Below are positions 8,752-16,917 of a DNA stretch of 45,482 bases, in pieces. The position numbers were made by a program, and so were the translations under genes. Within the stretch, counting starts at the first letter, position 1. Every line of letters starts with the position of its first letter. Source of the stretch: an uncultured Eubacteriales bacterium (GTDB taxonomy: Bacteria; Bacillota; Clostridia; Oscillospirales; Acutalibacteraceae); NCBI GenBank assembly GCA_934726435.1, contig CAKVDR010000001.1, forward strand, positions 1 through 45,482, given 5' to 3'. The notes under the pieces were generated by a model. It saw only the letters and a program-made list of their open reading frames with translations, made no database searches and was not told the DNA's origin.

Positions 8752-11700
8752 TTGAAAACAACATTTGAAAAACTCTTTGAAAAACACATTCATATTGGTT
8801 TAGACAAGTCCATCCTTGATTCCACAGTTGAATCTTTAAGGGTGGACAAGCTTAAACTGCAACTAACCATTAACCTATCTTCGCCTGAAAAATTGCTCCC
8901 TGAAAACATAAAAAAAGCAGAGAATACCTTGCTTAATTCCCAGCTTGGATTAAAAGAAATAACTATAAATCAAACTATAAAAGAAAAAATCGAAGACTCA
9001 AGCCTTCAAAAGTTAATCGAAGATTGCGCAAAAGACTTCCCCTCAGCTTTAAAAGCTCTTAAAAACTTTTCCGCCGAAATAATCGGCAGCACTGCAAAAA
9101 TCACCCTTTGCGGCAAGGGCAAAGCTTTGCTTACAATCAAAGGAATTGACAAAAAAATCTCGGCGTGCCTTTCAAAAAAATTCGGTAAAGAAATAAAAAC
9201 CGAGTTCATTGAAACCGAAAACAAAAAGGCAAAAGAAGCCATAAATGATTATGCTCCAGCGCCGAAAGAAAAATCAAAAGAAGAAAAAATTGAAATTGAA
9301 ACTAAAAAAATAGAAATAAGAAAAAGCGGGGAATACACCCCCGAAGTTTGCCTCGAAACTTCAAAAGTAATTTACGGCAACAAAATTTCAGGGCAAATCA
9401 CACCAATCCGCGAAATAGATTCCCAGATGAAGTCTGCTATCATTTGGGGAGACATTTTTTTCATTGACAGCAGAGTAACAAAAGATAATCAAAAAATAAT
9501 TTGCTCAATTTACATAACCGATTACACGAGTTCAATAATACTAAAAATAATCGAAAGCAAAAACCTGGCTTCCTATATTGAAAAGTTAAAACCCGGCATG
9601 ACAGTTTTGGTAAGGGGTGAACTTTCAGAGGATACCTATGAAAAAGAAATTATTCTAAGGCCAAGAAGCATAAACGTCGTGAGCAAATATGAAATCACTG
9701 ACAACGCCCCGAAAAAAAGAGTTGAACTTCATCTTCACACGAATATGTCTTCAATGGATGGCATGACAAGCGCAACCGAACTCATCGAGAGGGCACATTC
9801 TTGGGGCCACAGCGCTATTGCAATAACCGACCACGGCGTGGCTCAGGCTTACCCCGAAGCGATGAACTGCGCAAACAAAATTAACAAATCAAGCGAAAAT
9901 AAAATAAAAATTCTTTATGGAACTGAAGCTTATTTCGTAAATGACATGCTTCCAATCGTGACGGGAAAAGACGAGCGAGTTTTCGAAGATGAATTCATTT
10001 GCTTCGACCTTGAAACCACCGGCCTTAACGCAAAACAAGATAAAATAATTGAAATCGGTGCGTTTAGAGTTAAAAACAAGGAAATTCTCGATGAATTTTC
10101 GCTCTTTGTTGATCCTAAAATGACAATTTCGGAAAAAACGACCGAACTCACAGGCATAACGAACGAAATGCTTGCAGGCGCGCCTGAAGAAAAAGAAGCG
10201 CTAGAAAAATTCATGGAATTCTGCGGCGATAACCCTGTTTTGGTCGCTCACAATGCTAATTTCGACGTTTCTTTCATAAAAGCAACCGCTGAAAAATACG
10301 GCATAAATTTCGATTTTAGTTACATCGACACTGTTCCATTTAGCCGTGCGCTGATAATGAGCATTAAAAATTACAAGCTCGATACAGTAGCGAAATTTTT
10401 GAAAATCCCGGAATTTAACCATCACAGAGCCTGCGATGACGCAAAGGCTTTGGCGCATATTTTCATTGCTTTGATAGACATTGCCGTGAAAGATAAAAAC
10501 ATCACGAATATCTCAGAAATTAACACGGCACTTTCTTCAACCGACGCTAAAAAAGCCTATTCTTACCACATGATAATCCTCGTGAAAAATCAAACTGGGC
10601 TTAAAAATCTTTACAAACTCATTTCTTTTGCGCATCTTAAATATTTTTACAAAAAGCCGAGAATTCCCAAAAGCGAGCTTATTAAATTTAGAGAAGGTTT
10701 GATAATCGGCAGTGCTTGTGAGGCAGGGGAGCTTTTCAGAGCTATTGTTGCTGGCAGACCTTGGAATGACCTTTTGGAAATTGCAAAATTTTATGATTAC
10801 CTTGAAATTCAGCCGCTCGGGAACAACGAATTCATGCTCAGAGAAGGCATGGTTAATTCCCGCAAAGAGCTTAAAGAATTCAACAAAACCGTGATTAAAC
10901 TCGGCGAAGAACTAAATATTCCCGTCGTTGCTACGTGCGACGTTCACTTCATGGACCCGCACCATGCAGAATACAGGAAAATCCTGCAAGCAGGCCAAGG
11001 CTACGACGATGCTGACAACCAAGCACCGCTTTATTTCAGAACTACCGCCGAAATGCTCGAGGAATTTTCTTATCTTGAAAAAGAAAAAGCCTATGAAATC
11101 GTGGTTGAAAACACCAACAAAATCGCCGAGAGCATTGAAGAAATTTCCCCGATTCCTCCCGGAGTTTTCCCGCCATTTATCGAAGGCGCGCAAGATGAAT
11201 TAATCAGCATAACAATGACCAGAGCAAAAGAAAAATACGGCGACCCACTGCCCGAAATAGTAGCCAAAAGGCTAGAAAAAGAACTCGGTTCCATCACGAA
11301 GCATGGCTTTTCGGTGCTTTACATGGTTGCTCAAAAGCTAGTTGCAGACTCCGAAAAACACGGCTACCTAGTTGGTTCAAGGGGTTCGGTAGGTTCTTCA
11401 TTCGTGGCAACGATTTCCGGCATCTCGGAAGTTAACCCATTGGTCCCGCACTATTTGTGCCCAAAATGCAAAAACTCGGAATTCATAACCGACGGAAGTT
11501 ACGGTTCAGGCTTTGACTTACCGCCGAAAAAATGCCCGAAATGCGGCACTGATTACCTCCAAGACGGGCATGATATTCCTTTTGAAACGTTCCTGGGTTT
11601 TGACGGCGATAAAACACCTGATATAGACCTTAACTTCTCGGGCGAATATCAGTCAAGAGCCCACAGATACACCGAAACAATCTTCGGGAAAGATAACGTT

Positions 11701-13047
11701 TTCAAAGCAGGAACAATAGGCACGGTTGCAACCAAAACGGGTATAGGCTTCACCAAAAAATACGCCGAAGAACGCGGAATAACCCTCAAAAAGGCCGAAA
11801 TGATGAGGCTCGCAAACGGATGTACAGGCGTTAAACGCACAACCGGCCAGCACCCCGGTGGAATGGTCGTTGTTCCGAAAGGAAAAGAAATCTACGACTT
11901 CTGCCCGGTTCAAAGGCCGGCAAATGACCAAAAATCTGATAATATAACCACACACTTCGACTTCCACGCTATTCACGACACAATATGTAAGCTCGACGAA
12001 CTCGGGCACGATGTTCCGACGATTTATAAATATCTTGAAGATTACACAGGCATCAAAGTTACTGATGTTCCAATGAACGACAAAGAAGTCATTTCGCTCT
12101 TCACTTCGACCAAAGCCCTGGGCGTAAAACCCGTTGATATCGATTCCCACACAGGAACATTCTCGCTGCCGGAAGTAGGAACAAATTTCGTAAGGCAGAT
12201 GCTCATCGAATGCAAACCAACCACGTTTTCAGACTTGCTCCAGATTTCAGGCCTTTCCCACGGAACAGACGTTTGGAATGGCAATGCGCACGATCTAATT
12301 AAAAAAGGAATATGCACAATTTCGGAAGTTATCGGAACAAGAGACAACATTATGGTTTATTTGATGCACAAAGGCATGGATCCAAAAACTGCGTTTAGCA
12401 TCATGGAAATAGTTCGAAAAGGCAAAGCCACCAAACTTTTAACCCCTGAACACCTTAAATCAATGCGCGAGCACGGCGTGCCGGAATGGTATATTTCTTC
12501 CTGCATGAAAATTAAATATATGTTCCCAAAAGCTCACGCTGCGGCTTACATGATAGCAACTTTAAGGCTCGGGTGGTATAAAGTTCACAAACCCGCAGAA
12601 TACTACGCAGCATATTTCACCGCTCGAGGTGAAGATTTCGACGGTTTAACCGTCATAAAAGGCAGAAGTGCCCTGAAGAAAAAAATGGCCGAAATCACCG
12701 CAAAAGGCAAGGAAGCCAGCGCAAAAGAACAAAGTGCTTTTTCAACATTTCAAATTATTAACGAGATGCTTGCAAGAGGCGTTGAAATCTTGCCCGTTGA
12801 CCTTTACAAATCCGATTCATATAAATTTTTAATGGAAGACGGAAAAATAAGGCTTCCTTTCTCGTCACTCTCAGGAGTAGGTGAATCAGCGGCACAGAGC
12901 CTTGTTGATTCAAGAGCTGAAGGAAAATACATCTCGGTTGACGACATTCAGCTTCGCTCAAAAGTCACCAAAGCGGTTATAGAAACTCTTCAAACTGCAG
13001 GAGTCTTAAAAGATTTGCCACAAAGTAATCAAATTTCGTTTTTTTAA
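8752..13047 (+). CDS. polC: DNA polymerase III alpha subunit, PolC type
   Basis: The 1431-aa ORF has a PHP domain (VELHLHTNMSSMDG), an inserted DEDDh exonuclease domain (FDLETTGL, HNANFDVSF, HHRACDDA), a zinc finger (CPKCK...CPKCG) and a polymerase core. Confidence 0.97.
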   Translation: MKTTFEKLFEKHIHIGLDKSILDSTVESLRVDKLKLQLTINLSSPEKLLPENIKKAENTLLNSQLGLKEITINQTIKEKIEDSSLQKLIEDCAKDFPSALKALKNFSAEIIGSTAKITLCGKGKALLTIKGIDKKISACLSKKFGKEIKTEFIETENKKAKEAINDYAPAPKEKSKEEKIEIETKKIEIRKSGEYTPEVCLETSKVIYGNKISGQITPIREIDSQMKSAIIWGDIFFIDSRVTKDNQKIICSIYITDYTSSIILKIIESKNLASYIEKLKPGMTVLVRGELSEDTYEKEIILRPRSINVVSKYEITDNAPKKRVELHLHTNMSSMDGMTSATELIERAHSWGHSAIAITDHGVAQAYPEAMNCANKINKSSENKIKILYGTEAYFVNDMLPIVTGKDERVFEDEFICFDLETTGLNAKQDKIIEIGAFRVKNKEILDEFSLFVDPKMTISEKTTELTGITNEMLAGAPEEKEALEKFMEFCGDNPVLVAHNANFDVSFIKATAEKYGINFDFSYIDTVPFSRALIMSIKNYKLDTVAKFLKIPEFNHHRACDDAKALAHIFIALIDIAVKDKNITNISEINTALSSTDAKKAYSYHMIILVKNQTGLKNLYKLISFAHLKYFYKKPRIPKSELIKFREGLIIGSACEAGELFRAIVAGRPWNDLLEIAKFYDYLEIQPLGNNEFMLREGMVNSRKELKEFNKTVIKLGEELNIPVVATCDVHFMDPHHAEYRKILQAGQGYDDADNQAPLYFRTTAEMLEEFSYLEKEKAYEIVVENTNKIAESIEEISPIPPGVFPPFIEGAQDELISITMTRAKEKYGDPLPEIVAKRLEKELGSITKHGFSVLYMVAQKLVADSEKHGYLVGSRGSVGSSFVATISGISEVNPLVPHYLCPKCKNSEFITDGSYGSGFDLPPKKCPKCGTDYLQDGHDIPFETFLGFDGDKTPDIDLNFSGEYQSRAHRYTETIFGKDNVFKAGTIGTVATKTGIGFTKKYAEERGITLKKAEMMRLANGCTGVKRTTGQHPGGMVVVPKGKEIYDFCPVQRPANDQKSDNITTHFDFHAIHDTICKLDELGHDVPTIYKYLEDYTGIKVTDVPMNDKEVISLFTSTKALGVKPVDIDSHTGTFSLPEVGTNFVRQMLIECKPTTFSDLLQISGLSHGTDVWNGNAHDLIKKGICTISEVIGTRDNIMVYLMHKGMDPKTAFSIMEIVRKGKATKLLTPEHLKSMREHGVPEWYISSCMKIKYMFPKAHAAAYMIATLRLGWYKVHKPAEYYAAYFTARGEDFDGLTVIKGRSALKKKMAEITAKGKEASAKEQSAFSTFQIINEMLARGVEILPVDLYKSDSYKFLMEDGKIRLPFSSLSGVGESAAQSLVDSRAEGKYISVDDIQLRSKVTKAVIETLQTAGVLKDLPQSNQISFF

Positions 13048-13119
13048 TAAAAAATTGTAAAATTTTCCACTTGTATGTCACGTACTATTTATTTATTATA
13101 AATTTATAAAATAAAAGTG

Positions 13120-13148
13120 TTGACATTTCTTTTTACTGTGTATATAAT
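13120..13148 (+). promoter_or_regulatory. Consensus sigma-A promoter upstream of the first Nif11-leader peptide gene
   Basis: TTGACA (13120-13125), an exact 17-nt spacer, then TATAAT (13143-13148). An A-rich tract lies upstream. Confidence 0.7.
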
Positions 13149-13199
13149 CTAGAAATATGATCCTAGGTATAAAATAAAACAAAAAAGGTGGAATTAATT

Positions 13200-13529
13200 A
13201 TGAAAATTGAAAAAATTACTGAAGTAGTTAAAGATGAGGAATTTGCAAAAAGCATTATTGATATGAAATCTCCTGAAGAAGTTAAAGAAGCTTTTGCTAA
13301 AAAAGAAGTTGAAATTTCTTTAGATGAAGCACAAGTTATTATTTCAACCATAGAAAGAATGGTTAAAAAAGGTTCCGTTGAACTTTCAGAGAAAGACTTA
13401 GAAGAAATAGCAGGTGGCAGAACCCCCTCAATAAGTGAAAGACTTTCTTATTCATTGGCTGCGGCACTTGGAACAATAGTAGTGGCTTTATCTATCAAGA
13501 AAATGTATGATATTCGTAAAGAACGCTAA
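13200..13529 (+). CDS. Nif11-like leader / double-glycine precursor peptide P1 (73-aa leader plus 36-aa core)
   Basis: AAGGTGG RBS 8 nt before ATG 13200; the track start at 13188 is a GTG lying inside that RBS. The leader ends ELSEKDLEEIAGG. The core is RTPSISERLSYSLAAALGTIVVALSIKKMYDIRKER. Confidence 0.75.
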   Translation: MKIEKITEVVKDEEFAKSIIDMKSPEEVKEAFAKKEVEISLDEAQVIISTIERMVKKGSVELSEKDLEEIAGGRTPSISERLSYSLAAALGTIVVALSIKKMYDIRKER

Positions 13530-13858
13530 AAAATAGTACTTTCTTGCAAAAAAGAGAAAAATTTAAGAAATAATAATAATTTTAATTAACTCACTCAAAA
13601 CAATAAAAGCAGTTTTTGCTATCAAAGGAAGCAATCTTTTTCTAAAAGAGGCAAAGTCGTTAATTCCTACCATATGAAAAATAACTAATAAAGGTCTCTC
13701 TGAATTTTCAGCAGTAGACCTAAAATAAATTATACGGTGGTTATAGGGTTTATTAATTATTGCCAGCGCAGATTATAAAAAATTGCAAAAAATAAAAAAT
13801 GAAAAGAGTTAATAATATGTAATAACTAAGATATTAAATACAAGGGGGATTTACTACA

Positions 13859-14248
13859 ATGGAAAAAGAAGACATTTCAGAAGCAATGAAAGATATAAAA
13901 TTTGCCGAGAGCATAATGGACATGCAATCGCCCGAGAAAATTAAAAAAGCTTTTAAAGCAAAAGGAGTTGACCTTTCTTTGGAAGAATCACAAGTAGTAA
14001 TTTCCACGATTAAAAAAATTGATGAAAGTGAATCAGGCGAACTTTCAGAAAATGACCTACAAAAAATTGTGGGAGGAGTAGGGGAAAGCGAAAAAACAAG
14101 AGACCCTAAAATCGAAAAAATGGCGACGATTGCCACCGGTGTGGCAGTTGGAATGTTTGCTTATGAAACTTTTTCAAACGCAAAAAATTTAGTTTTTAGC
14201 GCAGGTGGAAAAATAGCAGATGCGATAATAAGAAAAATAAAAAAATAG
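13859..14248 (+). CDS. Nif11-like leader / double-glycine precursor peptide P2 (73-aa leader plus 56-aa core)
   Basis: AGGGGGA RBS. The leader ends ELSENDLQKIVGG. The core contains the hydrophobic helix MATIATGVAVGMFAY (a GxxxG motif) and the cationic tail KIADAIIRKIKK. Confidence 0.75.
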   Translation: MEKEDISEAMKDIKFAESIMDMQSPEKIKKAFKAKGVDLSLEESQVVISTIKKIDESESGELSENDLQKIVGGVGESEKTRDPKIEKMATIATGVAVGMFAYETFSNAKNLVFSAGGKIADAIIRKIKK

Positions 14249-14260
14249 GAGGAATTCAAA

Positions 14261-14689
14261 ATGGATAAACATCAAATGATGGAAGTTATGAGAGATGAGG
14301 ATTTTGTAAACGAAATTCTTGACATGCAAACAACTGAAGAAGTCCAAGAAGCTTTTGCTGAAAAAGGTATTGAAATTTCTTTGGAAGAATTTGATATAAT
14401 TTCTCAGATAATAAGTAAAATGGTTGATAAAAACACAACTGAACTTTCTGATGATGATTTAGCAGAGATTTCCGGTGGGTCTTTAGTTAGCGGTGGAAAA
14501 AAAGTTTTTAAAGACGTTGCAAATAGCTTCTCAAGCGCAAATGATGACACGACCAAACTAGGTTCAGCACTTGCGTACACTTCAATAGCCGTAGGTTTCA
14601 TTGCTACAGGAATTGCTGGAAAAATAATTTATGACAAAGGGAAAAAAGTAGTAAAATGGCTTAAAAACGGCTGTTCTTCAAAGAAATAA
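14261..14689 (+). CDS. Nif11-like leader / double-glycine precursor peptide P3 (73-aa leader plus 69-aa core)
   Basis: AGGAGG RBS, 12 nt after the P2 stop. The leader ends ELSDDDLAEISGG. The core contains SIAVGFIATGIAGKIIY (GxxxG) and the cationic tail KGKKVVKWLKNGCSSKK. Confidence 0.75.
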   Translation: MDKHQMMEVMRDEDFVNEILDMQTTEEVQEAFAEKGIEISLEEFDIISQIISKMVDKNTTELSDDDLAEISGGSLVSGGKKVFKDVANSFSSANDDTTKLGSALAYTSIAVGFIATGIAGKIIYDKGKKVVKWLKNGCSSKK

Positions 14690-14695
14690 AAAAAT

Positions 14696-14726
14696 TCCTC
14701 CGGTTTTTCCCGGAGGATAATTTATT
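14696..14726 (+). terminator. Rho-independent terminator after P3
   Basis: TCCTCCGG (14696-14703), a 6-nt loop, then CCGGAGGA (14710-14717), followed by a T-rich tract. Confidence 0.7.
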
Positions 14727-14825
14727 GCTTAAATAAATTAAATACTAAAACAGCTAACTTTGTAATCGTCAAGAATTTTTTCTACTTTCAAATATCTCCT
14801 ATTATGTTTTAAAATAATTTCAAAT

Positions 14826-14861
14826 ATAAAAAAATTATCTCCGGTTAAAAAGCAACCGGAG
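14826..14861 (-). terminator. Rho-independent terminator for the minus-strand secreted-protein gene
   Basis: CTCCGGTT (14839-14846) pairs with AACCGGAG (14854-14861). On the minus strand a T-run follows the hairpin. Confidence 0.65.
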
Positions 14862-14906
14862 GTTTATTAATAAACATTAGAATATCTTAAGCTATAACTT
14901 AATTAA

Positions 14907-15752
14907 TTATTTTTTAAATCCTCTATTCTGTACATGAAATTTTTTATCTACTATTCCAAATTCTTTCAAAAGGCTATTATACTTTGCAATTTTATTAATA
15001 TTATAATTTACGATGTTTGGATTGCTAGAATCTTTTCTTACAGTACCTTGCGGGCGGAATTGGAATACTAATTGTTTTTCATTTTCAGAAGTGAAAACAA
15101 GATCTACTCCACCATAAGGATCGTCTTTTTTGACAAACACTGTTTCCGAATTCCAACCTGTTGCTTCGCAAACGCAGTTAAGTTGCAAAGCGAGTTCAAA
15201 TTGTTCACGTGTGAAAGTTCCCGCTTTATAGATTATTCTTTTTATACTGTCATTAGTAACTACATATGAGGACTCATCCATTGCATACGGATTTTCTTTA
15301 GGTTGGCTAGTCTTTTTTGTGATACCACTTCTAAAATATGTTCTAACAAAATTCAATTCTTTTCTAAGTTTATTATATTCAGGGAATGCCAAAGGTTTAT
15401 CCCCTTTGCTACTATCAACAAAACAAGTTTTTGCGTTAGGTGTGATTTTACCGTCATAAGGTTTTACAGGATTATAATTAAACATGTCAGGGATTTCTCT
15501 AAATCTTTTTCTTGCCATTGCAATCCTAACAAGATCTTCAGGAGTTTGAAAATATTTTGCAACAACCATCATACTATGTCTATCAAGGTGTCCTTTTTCA
15601 ATAATTTCTTTTTCGTCTGGTGCACAAGATACTGATTGCCCTTTTTCAATAACTTCTTTTTCGTCCGGTGCACAAAATCCTGATGGCATTGTTGAAAGAA
15701 TTCCAACAACAGAAAAAGCCATTGCCGTTGCTCTTTTAATAATTTTTTTCAT
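14907..15752 (-). CDS. Secreted protein of unknown function with a tandem CAPDEKE[VI]IEKG repeat after the signal peptide
   Basis: I place the start at MKKIIKRATAMAFSVVGILS, which has a GTGAGG RBS. It has an N-terminal signal peptide and I recognise no domain. Confidence 0.6.
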   Translation of the reverse strand: MKKIIKRATAMAFSVVGILSTMPSGFCAPDEKEVIEKGQSVSCAPDEKEIIEKGHLDRHSMMVVAKYFQTPEDLVRIAMARKRFREIPDMFNYNPVKPYDGKITPNAKTCFVDSSKGDKPLAFPEYNKLRKELNFVRTYFRSGITKKTSQPKENPYAMDESSYVVTNDSIKRIIYKAGTFTREQFELALQLNCVCEATGWNSETVFVKKDDPYGGVDLVFTSENEKQLVFQFRPQGTVRKDSSNPNIVNYNINKIAKYNSLLKEFGIVDKKFHVQNRGFKK

Positions 15753-15789
15753 TAAAACCAACCTCACTTTTTAATATTTTACAATTCAT

Positions 15790-15818
15790 ATTTTAACACT
15801 ATAATATGCTTTTGTCAA
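15790..15818 (-). promoter_or_regulatory. Sigma-A promoter for the 14907-15752 gene
   Basis: On the minus strand: TTGACA (15818-15813), a 17-nt spacer, then TAAAAT (15795-15790). Confidence 0.6.
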
Positions 15819-15845
15819 CACTTTTTTAATTATTCTTAAACTTTT

Positions 15846-15883
15846 TTTAAAAATAAAAGGCTCTGATCTTTTAAATCAAAGCC
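15846..15883 (-). terminator. Terminator after the M23 peptidase gene
   Basis: Imperfect 9-bp hairpin, GGCTCTGAT with ATCAAAGCC. On the minus strand TTTTATTTTT follows. Confidence 0.55.
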
Positions 15884-15900
15884 CTGTTTTAATATTTAAT

Positions 15901-16917
15901 TCATTTTTCTTCCCAATCAAATTCACGCGAATATTCTTTATTTTCGGAGTTTCTTACAACGCTTGATTTATTCTTCTCCAAAAGCTGCATTAGAGCATAA
16001 AGATCAATCCAGATTTCGTGATCAGATTCTTTTTGAGACTCATCAAAAACAAGCTCAAGGCCAATGTGAAGGTGGCTTTGCTCAATGTTATTTACATTTT
16101 CTTTTTTGCTGTAACCCGTCCTGCCAACATAACCTATAACATCCCCGGCTTTAACGATATCGCCTTCTTTTAAATCTGATTTAAAAGGCTTGTTTTGCCT
16201 CAAATGAGCGTAGTAATAATATCTTTTATTATCAAAGCTTCTTATGCCAATTCTCCAGCCGCCGTATTGGTTCCAGCCCATGATTTCAACTCTGCCTGAT
16301 TCAACCGCAATAACCGGAGTGCCTATGGCGCACATCATATCATGCCCAAGATGAGGCCTTGCGTAACCATAAGACCGCGAAGCTCCAAAATCGTCATAAT
16401 GCGAAAAAGGGAAGGTTTTTGCAATCGGCGAGAAGCATTTAAGGCCGTAGGCTTCTTCCCAAACAGGCTCTTCACTATTTTTTGGTTTCTTTTGAACTTT
16501 GTAATCGCCCAGAAAGCTCTTTAAAACAGCCTCATAGGCCTCAAAATAATAACCATATGTTTTCATGTTCTTTGCTATTTCGTTCATTTTTTCGCCATTT
16601 TTAAGCTTCTTAACCACATCATCCATATCAGATGATTTATATTTTTTGAAATCTCCGCCGTATTTTGAACCCAAATAAGCAAGAATTTCAATCCAGTTTA
16701 ATTTAATCTCTTCGCTATGAGATTTTATATCCTCGCGCATTGCTTTTTCAAGCGCTTCATAAGTTGGGTTAAACTCAACGTATTTTATGAATTTTTTATT
16801 CTCTTCCGCGCGCACTGAAAATCCGCCATTGCCTAGAACAAAAGCCCCTGCTCCGAAAATAGTTAAAAAAGCCAAACCAAAAAGCAAATATCTTCTTTTA
16901 AACCTAAGTACAAACAA
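15901..16917 (-). CDS. M23 family metallopeptidase (peptidoglycan DD-endopeptidase-like), membrane-anchored or secreted
   Basis: HLGHDM, GDVIGYVGRTGYS and SHLHIGLE match the HxxxD and HxH zinc-site motifs of M23. There is an N-terminal transmembrane or signal segment. TTG start with a GAGGTG RBS. Confidence 0.85.
   Translation of the reverse strand: MFVLRFKRRYLLFGLAFLTIFGAGAFVLGNGGFSVRAEENKKFIKYVEFNPTYEALEKAMREDIKSHSEEIKLNWIEILAYLGSKYGGDFKKYKSSDMDDVVKKLKNGEKMNEIAKNMKTYGYYFEAYEAVLKSFLGDYKVQKKPKNSEEPVWEEAYGLKCFSPIAKTFPFSHYDDFGASRSYGYARPHLGHDMMCAIGTPVIAVESGRVEIMGWNQYGGWRIGIRSFDNKRYYYYAHLRQNKPFKSDLKEGDIVKAGDVIGYVGRTGYSKKENVNNIEQSHLHIGLELVFDESQKESDHEIWIDLYALMQLLEKNKSSVVRNSENKEYSREFDWEEK

Follow-up and report, generated by a model that had tools for sequence, protein, structure and literature searches.

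How are the products of three small double-glycine precursor genes matured when no exporter is encoded beside them? The genes, here called A, B and C, lie downstream of polC in a 45,482-nucleotide stretch of DNA (the window; contig CAKVDR010000001.1 of assembly GCA_934726435.1) from an uncultured Eubacteriales bacterium of the family Acutalibacteraceae. The source is a metagenome-assembled genome (MAG) of 454,583 bp in 37 contigs, rated 57% complete (G000 below). A first-pass annotation of the window had described the precursor genes as orphaned and offered two ways out: either maturation is supplied in trans from elsewhere in the genome, or the products are not exported and are instead tail-anchored membrane proteins. 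Its account of the surroundings was borne out. The cluster sits between polC and the gene of a convergent secreted protein and ends at a terminator hairpin, and no C39 peptidase, ABC protein, modification enzyme or plausible immunity open reading frame (ORF) was found within ±8 kb of the cluster, nor any exporter, modification enzyme or immunity gene in the whole window. The explanation that we prefer, with a probability of roughly 0.7, is that A, B and C are Nif11-type (N11P-like) double-glycine precursors exported in trans by the single export cassette of the genus, which would be located past the left end of the contig.

The N-terminal parts of all three proteins matched TIGR03798, the Nif11-like leader family, from residue 7 or 8 to residue 73, with the alignments ending exactly at Gly72-Gly73. 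Their leader ends (ELSEKDLEEIAGG, ELSENDLQKIVGG and ELSDDDLAEISGG) each close at residue 73 and fit ELSxxDLxxIxGG. No N-terminal signal peptide was found in A–C. The leaders are acidic (net charge −6 to −16) and the tails basic (+4 to +8); each tail comprises a single Gly/Ala-rich hydrophobic helix followed by a cationic end in which the positive charges are placed, the post-helix stretch carrying net charges of +3, +4 and +7 in A, B and C as counted from the sequences. The calculated values are 4.0 kDa, isoelectric point (pI) 10.2 and net +4 for tail A, 6.0 kDa, pI 9.7 and net +4 for tail B, and 7.2 kDa, pI 9.9 and net +8 for tail C. Cys is absent from tails A and B and occurs once in tail C. 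Judged by these features, A–C appear to carry an N11P-type leader, an assignment that concerns the leader and does not by itself make them RiPPs (peptides of ribosomal origin that are modified after translation).

A homology search with C returned 15 matches, all of them C orthologues, and the family became visible only by an exhaustive profile search, which gave 1371 representative clusters at E ≤ 0.001 and 128 at E ≤ 1e-10. The leader stood at or near the N-terminus among the 150 matches listed of these 1371 clusters, and 143 of the 150 were analysed for the family statistics (142 for tail hydrophobicity). The median leader was 73 aa with a net charge of −9, and the median tail 47 aa (range 12–465) with a net charge of +3 (n = 143). 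Leu-12 was present in 130 of the 143 leaders, with Ser/Thr predominating at −11 and acidic residues at −10 to −8, followed by Leu-7, Ile/Val-4 and Gly-Gly; the preferences at −12, −11 and −10 to −8 were not imposed by the search pattern. By its sequence, this motif matches the classical double-glycine consensus, and the putative C39 recognition motif is nearly invariant. It is the same as the N11P motif of Haft et al., ELSDEELEAVAGG (Haft 2010, PMC2887384), and LahT150 binds the corresponding last leader helix (PMC6363468). All 37 leaders sampled from the wider family matched TIGR03798 at E ≤ 0.01 (best 4.7e-11). In the tails, a clearly hydrophobic 17-residue window was found in 100 of 142 and was missing from 42, and some close relatives of C (P0011 and P0012) have an amphipathic helix in place of the hydrophobic one; the hydrophobic helix is not obligatory in the family.

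The tails change much faster than the leaders. Against the nearest relative of G000, the human-gut MAG UMGS1703 (G043), whose flanking proteins are about 97% identical, the ratio of nonsynonymous to synonymous substitution rates (dN/dS) was 0.05–0.15 for the leaders and 0.23–0.63 for the tails; dN reached 0.20–0.49 in the tails, compared with 0.0097 in polC. In close relatives of C (62–65% identical overall), the leader was nearly unchanged and much of the tail replaced. A leader that stays conserved while its core changes fast is what exported precursor families typically show. We also observed that dS in the three genes (13200–14689 compared with locus L025) was 0.46–0.94, above that of the flanking polC (0.36) and ispG (0.26), a hint that paralogues have exchanged sequence or that the alleles are of older origin. 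Two recurring tail types were seen as well: about a third of the family tails worldwide, 45 of the 143 (P0016–P0164), consist of a short hydrophobic helix with RRW, RGRW or KW at its end, and 28 of the 143, including that of C, have a helix followed by [VG]KW[AG]xKK. Trp-ended cores adjoin a radical SAM/SPASM-like enzyme in genome G025.

Where, then, is the exporter? The window opens inside a V-ATPase subunit I gene, whose product was, by tblastn, 49% identical to ntpI of G010 and 97% identical to its G043 orthologue. In G043, three leader genes are followed by polC, ispG, a number of further genes and ntpI to ntpD, and then by genes for an HlyD-like protein, a peptidase-containing ABC transporter (PCAT) and a second ABC protein (ABC2); the PCAT gene starts 7.1 kb past the point matching the contig end of the window, about 20 kb from gene A. 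The order is the same in G003, whose flanks are 60–70% identical, with 23 kb between the precursor gene and the PCAT gene, and the distances from cluster to PCAT are 26 kb in G013 and 21.5 kb in G001. The same PCAT locus, a V-ATPase operon followed by genes for a protein of about 195 aa, a C39-ABC protein and a second ABC protein, was read in six genomes of the genus, and in 23 of 24 genus genomes (0.8–1.8 Mb) a single open frame, about 720 aa long, scores strongly for a C39 domain (118–129 bits). A transporter at the homologous loci of related genomes, which the first-pass annotation had proposed to look for, is thus found after the V-ATPase operon. On TIGR03796, the PCAT scored 896.3 bits in G010 and 902.8 bits in G043, above the equivalog cut-off of 853.3, and its partner scored 724 and 728 bits, respectively, on TIGR03797 (cut-off 709); the small HlyD-like protein reached 95–103 bits on TIGR03794 in these two genomes, below the cut-off because the protein is short. 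The motifs QMEALECGAAC, NHFVVL and NDPA are present in the PCAT of the genus and would supply the catalytic Gln, Cys, His and Asp of a C39 peptidase. Judged by these family matches, the cassette in the relatives is the three-gene NHLP/Nif11 export cassette (TIGR03794-like, TIGR03796, TIGR03797) described by Haft in 2010. That the window contains no exporter is thus due largely to the contig stopping inside ntpI, before the cassette; in this genome, going by the gene order of the relatives, the exporter would lie distant (about 20 kb) but linked to the cluster.

Leader and transporter also occur together beyond this locus. The leader profile found the family in 36 of 36 genus genomes, at 1 to at least 22 copies per genome and often in tandem arrays. 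Next to polC, G003 has one copy, this genome and G043 have three each, and G008 (UMGS1750) has six: the precursor site is old and its copy number variable. With a broader leader profile, we examined a further 150 genomes from the order, each with a completeness of at least 90%. The leader family was present in nine and TIGR03796 scored over the cut-off in 13; all nine belonged to these 13, and the leader was found in none of the 137 genomes lacking TIGR03796. The nine span six families, and in every one of them the leader genes share a contig with the PCAT gene, 2.5–6.5 kb away. Because the genomes of the order and the genus are related and not independent, we give counts and no statistical test. 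In G025, five precursor genes lie directly downstream of the cassette, together with a gene for a radical-SAM/SPASM-like enzyme (judged by sequence). Co-occurrence with the TIGR03794/TIGR03796/TIGR03797 cassette thus holds in the relatives, the cassette being unassembled in the window's own genome.

The statement that such precursors are normally adjacent to a transporter is untrue for the N11P family, in which location far from modification and export genes is a trait (Haft, Basu and Mitchell 2010; PMC2887384). A–C are further members of a known precursor family for which a remote exporter is ordinary, and the orphan puzzle dissolves because the exporter is linked but beyond the contig end and the family is known for remote precursors; of the label "orphaned", what stands is that no exporter lies in the window, and what falls is the exporter's absence from the neighbourhood, as in relatives it is syntenic about 20 kb off. 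Maturation in trans, the first of the two answers originally offered, is supported by a cassette present in nearly every genus genome and about 20–26 kb away in the four in which we give the distance. The absence of a partner gene from a window of a 57%-complete MAG is weak evidence and calls for caution. In this genus, whose genomes measure about 1 Mb, a single NHLP-type PCAT is retained at a core position next to the V-ATPase operon, together with up to at least 22 leader genes with fast-changing tails; this suggests that exported membrane-active peptides and proteins are of importance to how these uncultured gut bacteria live. The tails are short enough for synthesis and testing.

Among characterized systems, the N11P precursors that accompany TIGR03794, TIGR03796 and TIGR03797 (for example prochlorosin ProcA; PMC2887384) come closest. 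Like A–C, they have some 70 residues of leader that close with ELSxxxLxxIxGG, belong to large sets of paralogues in which the leader is conserved and the core hypervariable, can sit far from a single shared exporter, and have the same three-gene cassette as partner. What differs here is that the TIGR03798 scores are below the cut-off, that neither LanM nor a cyclodehydratase was found, that the host genus belongs to the gut Clostridia and has genomes of about 1 Mb, and that the HlyD-like protein has only about 193 aa. The LahA1–9/LahT system of Lachnospiraceae bacterium C6A11 (Bobeica et al. 2019, PMC6363468) is likewise from a gut Firmicute and combines multiple Nif11-type Gly-Gly precursors, whose cores are diverse, with one PCAT, the C39 domain of LahT recognizing the last 13 or so leader residues (PMC6363468). 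However, the Lah precursors cluster with LahT and lanthipeptide enzymes, whereas those described here are dispersed (1 to at least 22 per genome) and apparently unmodified. Class IIb bacteriocins (lactococcin G, plantaricin EF/JK; TIGR03949, NF038034) share with B and C an adjacent gene pair, which for B and C is presumed to be co-transcribed as well, and a Gly-Gly leader; their mature peptides, like the predicted ones here, are cationic and have a single helix with small-residue motifs (GVAVG) and with aromatic residues at its ends. Unlike class IIb peptides, which have a Gly-Gly leader of 15–30 aa and an adjacent immunity gene, A–C have a 73-aa leader, longer predicted mature peptides and no adjacent immunity ORF or dedicated transporter that we could find; TIGR03949 matched A only, at 15.7 bits against a cut-off of 21.5.

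We propose that transcription of the genes begins at the promoter of A and that B and C are co-transcribed. The last leader helix (Leu-12, Leu-7, Ile/Val-4, Gly-Gly) would dock on the cytoplasmic side in the C39 domain of the TIGR03796 subunit, a cut after Gly73 would remove the leader, and the tail would be pumped out by the ABC pair with the short HlyD-like helper. This would yield cationic peptides of 4.0, 6.0 and 7.2 kDa, unmodified and with one Gly/Ala-rich hydrophobic helix each; unmodified peptides are expected because no YcaO was found in five genus genomes and tails A and B have no Cys. Once released, the peptides would most likely insert into the membranes of other cells, in the manner of class II bacteriocin-like peptides, and B and C may act as a pair. 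The link of the precursors to the PCAT is well supported; cleavage, export, lack of modification and any antimicrobial role of A–C are inferred.

Several observations weigh against this explanation. The TIGR03798 scores of 16.4 (A), 19.3 (B) and 22.9 bits (C; 25.4 bits for its leader taken alone) all fall below the cut-off of 32.3, and we read the leaders, on sequence grounds, as a divergent branch of that family. The AlphaFold2 model of C, with five short leader helices of which the last (residues 64–71) stands just before Gly-Gly, is weak (pLDDT 58.7, tail below 50) and could not support a fold search. Next to the cluster we found no immunity gene, the 330-bp spacer between A and B containing only a 36-aa antisense ORF; for a bacteriocin locus this is unusual, and it is what speaks most against a classical bacteriocin role. 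Large proteins that have two hydrophobic segments and domains of cytoplasmic type (USP, AAA) begin with the same leader, a finding that leaves room for a role in membrane insertion instead of release. Finally, ntpA, ntpB, ntpD and the genes for the HlyD-like protein, PCAT and ABC2 gave no orthologue-level tblastn match in the window's assembly, and a PF00664 search of its 455 kb found no type-I ABC exporter membrane domain. Since ntpA, ntpB, ntpD and the cassette genes are all unassembled, the whole block would lie in the gap; we infer the presence of the cassette in this genome from synteny and from the 43% of the genome rated missing. The matches that tblastn did return for PCAT and ABC2, on contigs C2, C5, C8, C18, C26 and C37, covered the ATPase domain only at 27–33% identity and were set aside as unrelated ABC proteins, and the sole PF03412 match in the genome (11.4 bits, C2:26282–26422) was dismissed as chance, lying as it does inside a gene that, judged by sequence, is glycyl-tRNA synthetase-like. 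The A–B spacer was considered as a decayed gene copy and rejected, its last 80 or so bases matching the region upstream of B in relatives.

The leader is not confined to small proteins. A genome-wide scan for PCAT genes and further leaders, as the first-pass annotation had suggested, returned no PCAT in the assembled 455 kb and did return the leader on proteins of 474 and 486 aa. The former (C3:17294–18718; L005 295–1719, minus strand) has an N11P-type leader with Gly-Gly, two hydrophobic segments and a USP/UCH domain (PF00443, 57.9 bits) with Cys box GLPNVGFSCHLNAALQ and His box GHYYAY; its PDB matches are to eukaryotic USPs, and orthologues occur across the genus (L041, L043, P0052, P0055, P0065). 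The latter (C22:7708–9168; L002 1384–2844) has the same leader and Gly-Gly with a signal-peptide-like segment directly after, and no family match. A 373-aa adhesin-like protein (C16:5903–7024) has a shorter Gly-Gly leader, a signal-like segment at once, a Pectate_lyase_5 domain and GNGG repeats. The signal-like segment follows Gly-Gly directly in the proteins of the genus and in two of these three large proteins, the 474-aa protein having a four-residue spacer, and a second hydrophobic helix is often found 45–65 residues or so beyond it. Leader-bearing frames of 390–845 aa are common across the genus: nine proteins of 389–839 aa at L038–L045 (genomes G021, G011, G022, G009, G019, G017, G024 and G001) all have the order leader, Gly-Gly, signal-like segment, two with UCH domains, one (L044) with a weak AAA ATPase match and six without a Pfam match. 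Our literature search found no paper describing this two-part start on large proteins. It is possible, as a tentative alternative that we do not favour, that the PCAT of the genus is a general sorting route for dozens of dispersed genes with the two-part start, of which A–C would be minimal members and not bacteriocins. The cargo of such a route may range from tails of 36–69 aa to proteins of 370–840 aa, including USP-type deubiquitinase-like and AAA-domain proteins, and tail A, by its sequence, looks like a signal-like segment without cargo.

Other genes with Gly-Gly leaders were noticed in G000, which is unusually rich in them for its size. Four tandem ORFs (66–123 aa) with short Gly-Gly leaders at C8:2946–6371 stand beside a 353-aa ORF that is radical-SAM-like (judged by sequence) and may form a separate RiPP-type cluster. 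More small ORFs with short Gly-Gly leaders lie at C2:3701–3964, C2:4587–4889, C2:21062–21286, C11:11189–11362, C32:634–927 and C36:85–390; the core is zinc-ribbon-like (CxxC...CxxC) in two of these and hydrophobic and rich in Cys in another.

The preferred reading, export of A–C as free peptides, has to be weighed against three others, which differ in the fate of the tail. The PCAT could cleave and handle the peptides and yet leave them in the membrane of the producer, as a two-part tag without cargo, or they could serve as signalling peptides. Tail A (RTPSISER / LSYSLAAALGTIVVALSI / KKMYDIRKER) does resemble the signal-like segment that follows Gly-Gly in the large proteins, the helix with [VG]KW[AG]xKK in 28 of 143 tails fits a membrane interface with the positive end inside, and the lack of an immunity gene at the cluster would be natural. 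On the other hand, two-peptide bacteriocins are modelled in target membranes in the same way, with a cationic tail and Trp/Tyr at the interface, sideways release of cargo into the membrane is not known of any PCAT, and the tails are highly variable, 42 of 142 having no hydrophobic helix. We consider this fate unlikely. If the proteins were not cleaved or exported at all, the Nif11-like part would be a cytoplasmic head and the C-terminal helix an anchor, the second answer originally offered. One hydrophobic helix near each C-terminus, the missing signal peptide and the fact that the assembled 455 kb contain no exporter agree with such a topology, and a head better conserved than the tail is also expected of a functional head domain. 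Nevertheless, a tail anchor calls for a short, weakly charged C-terminal stub and independence of an exporter, and of these proteins the helix is there but the stub is strongly positive, which outside the cell would violate the positive-inside rule; many tails in the family have no hydrophobic helix, the C39 recognition motif is nearly invariant, and the apparent absence of the exporter is accounted for by the contig end. Tail-anchoring was to be favoured if homologues always occurred without a PCAT; in the order genomes the opposite was found, the family being present only where TIGR03796 is and close to the PCAT in all nine genomes of other genera. We regard tail-anchored, non-exported proteins as highly improbable.

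The third alternative keeps the export and adds a modification: A–C would be true RiPPs whose cores are altered before export by an enzyme encoded elsewhere, such as the radical-SAM-like protein on C8. N11P leaders classically guide modification enzymes (PMC2887384), the genome itself has that radical-SAM-like ORF beside short Gly-Gly-leader peptides, and in G025 the same leader family adjoins the radical SAM/SPASM-like enzyme mentioned above. Against this stand the cores, which are not of the Cys/Ser/Thr-rich kind accompanied by a modifying enzyme: tails A and B have no Cys and tail C has one, and, unlike the G025-type cores, the tails do not end in Trp. The radical-SAM-like ORF on C8 has substrates of its own next to it, with short leaders, and neither YcaO nor a LanC-like protein was found in five near-complete genus genomes, the LanC negative being weak in that the search matched in no control genome. 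Modification of A–C is thus very unlikely in our estimate, and export of unmodified peptides remains the preferred reading.

The features of the locus are collected in the table below.

Features of the window, by position in the 45,482-nucleotide stretch
Feature	Position	Strand	Remarks
V-ATPase subunit I, 5' part	1–1002	−	first 334 aa; ORF open at contig edge
V-ATPase subunit C/d (AC39)	1014–2051	−	PF01992, 193.7 bits; syntenic with L027, L033
polC (DNA polymerase III alpha, Gram-positive type)	8752–13047	+	conserved upstream neighbour; Pfam PHP, RNase_T, DNA_pol3_alpha and finger domains
Sigma-70-type consensus promoter ahead of A	13120–13148	+	TTGACA-17-TATAAT, 12/12 matches
Precursor A	13200–13529	+	109 aa; leader 13200–13418, then 36-aa tail RTPSISERLSYSLAAALGTIVVALSIKKMYDIRKER
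Precursor B	13859–14248	+	129 aa; 73-aa leader, 56-aa tail with GVAVG motif
Precursor C	14261–14689	+	142 aa; 73-aa leader, 69-aa tail: hydrophobic helix, then VVKWLKNG..KK
Bidirectional intrinsic terminator hairpin	14696–14717		cluster end; 8-bp stem, 6 GC pairs, both strands
Convergent signal-peptide protein	14907–15767	−	286 aa; no Pfam or NCBIfam match
M23 peptidase	15901–16917	−	conserved flank; PF01551, 65.9 bits; syntenic in L025, L026

Gene C starts 12 nt past the stop codon of B and is preceded by its own GGAGG ribosome-binding site, and the hexamers of the A promoter are kept in G043 and G008. The polC product is 97.8% identical to its G043 orthologue. The wider surroundings are housekeeping genes, with dxr, an M50 protease gene, ispG and polC on one side and genes for ferredoxin, spoVT, gpmI and tpiA on the other. 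An identical 13-nt sequence, AAAAGTGTTGACA, occurs at 13113–13125 (plus strand) and 15813–15825 (minus strand), its only two copies in the window, and overlaps the −35 elements of the A promoter and of the promoter of the convergent gene. It was considered as a shared operator and dropped because it is not conserved in G043 or G008; the pair is probably just two strong promoters.

The convergent 286-aa protein is treated here as a neighbour and not as a component of the precursor system. Its counterparts at the same site in relatives have 582, 633 and 256 aa (L025 10489–12237; L026 9384–11285 and 11360–12130), so that a variable secreted family always occupies this convergent site. The members have in common a signal peptide and an N-terminal domain (..KYF..P.DL......K.....E.....YNP..), to which the 582- and 633-aa versions add a long leucine-rich repeat array that is BspA-like by eye.

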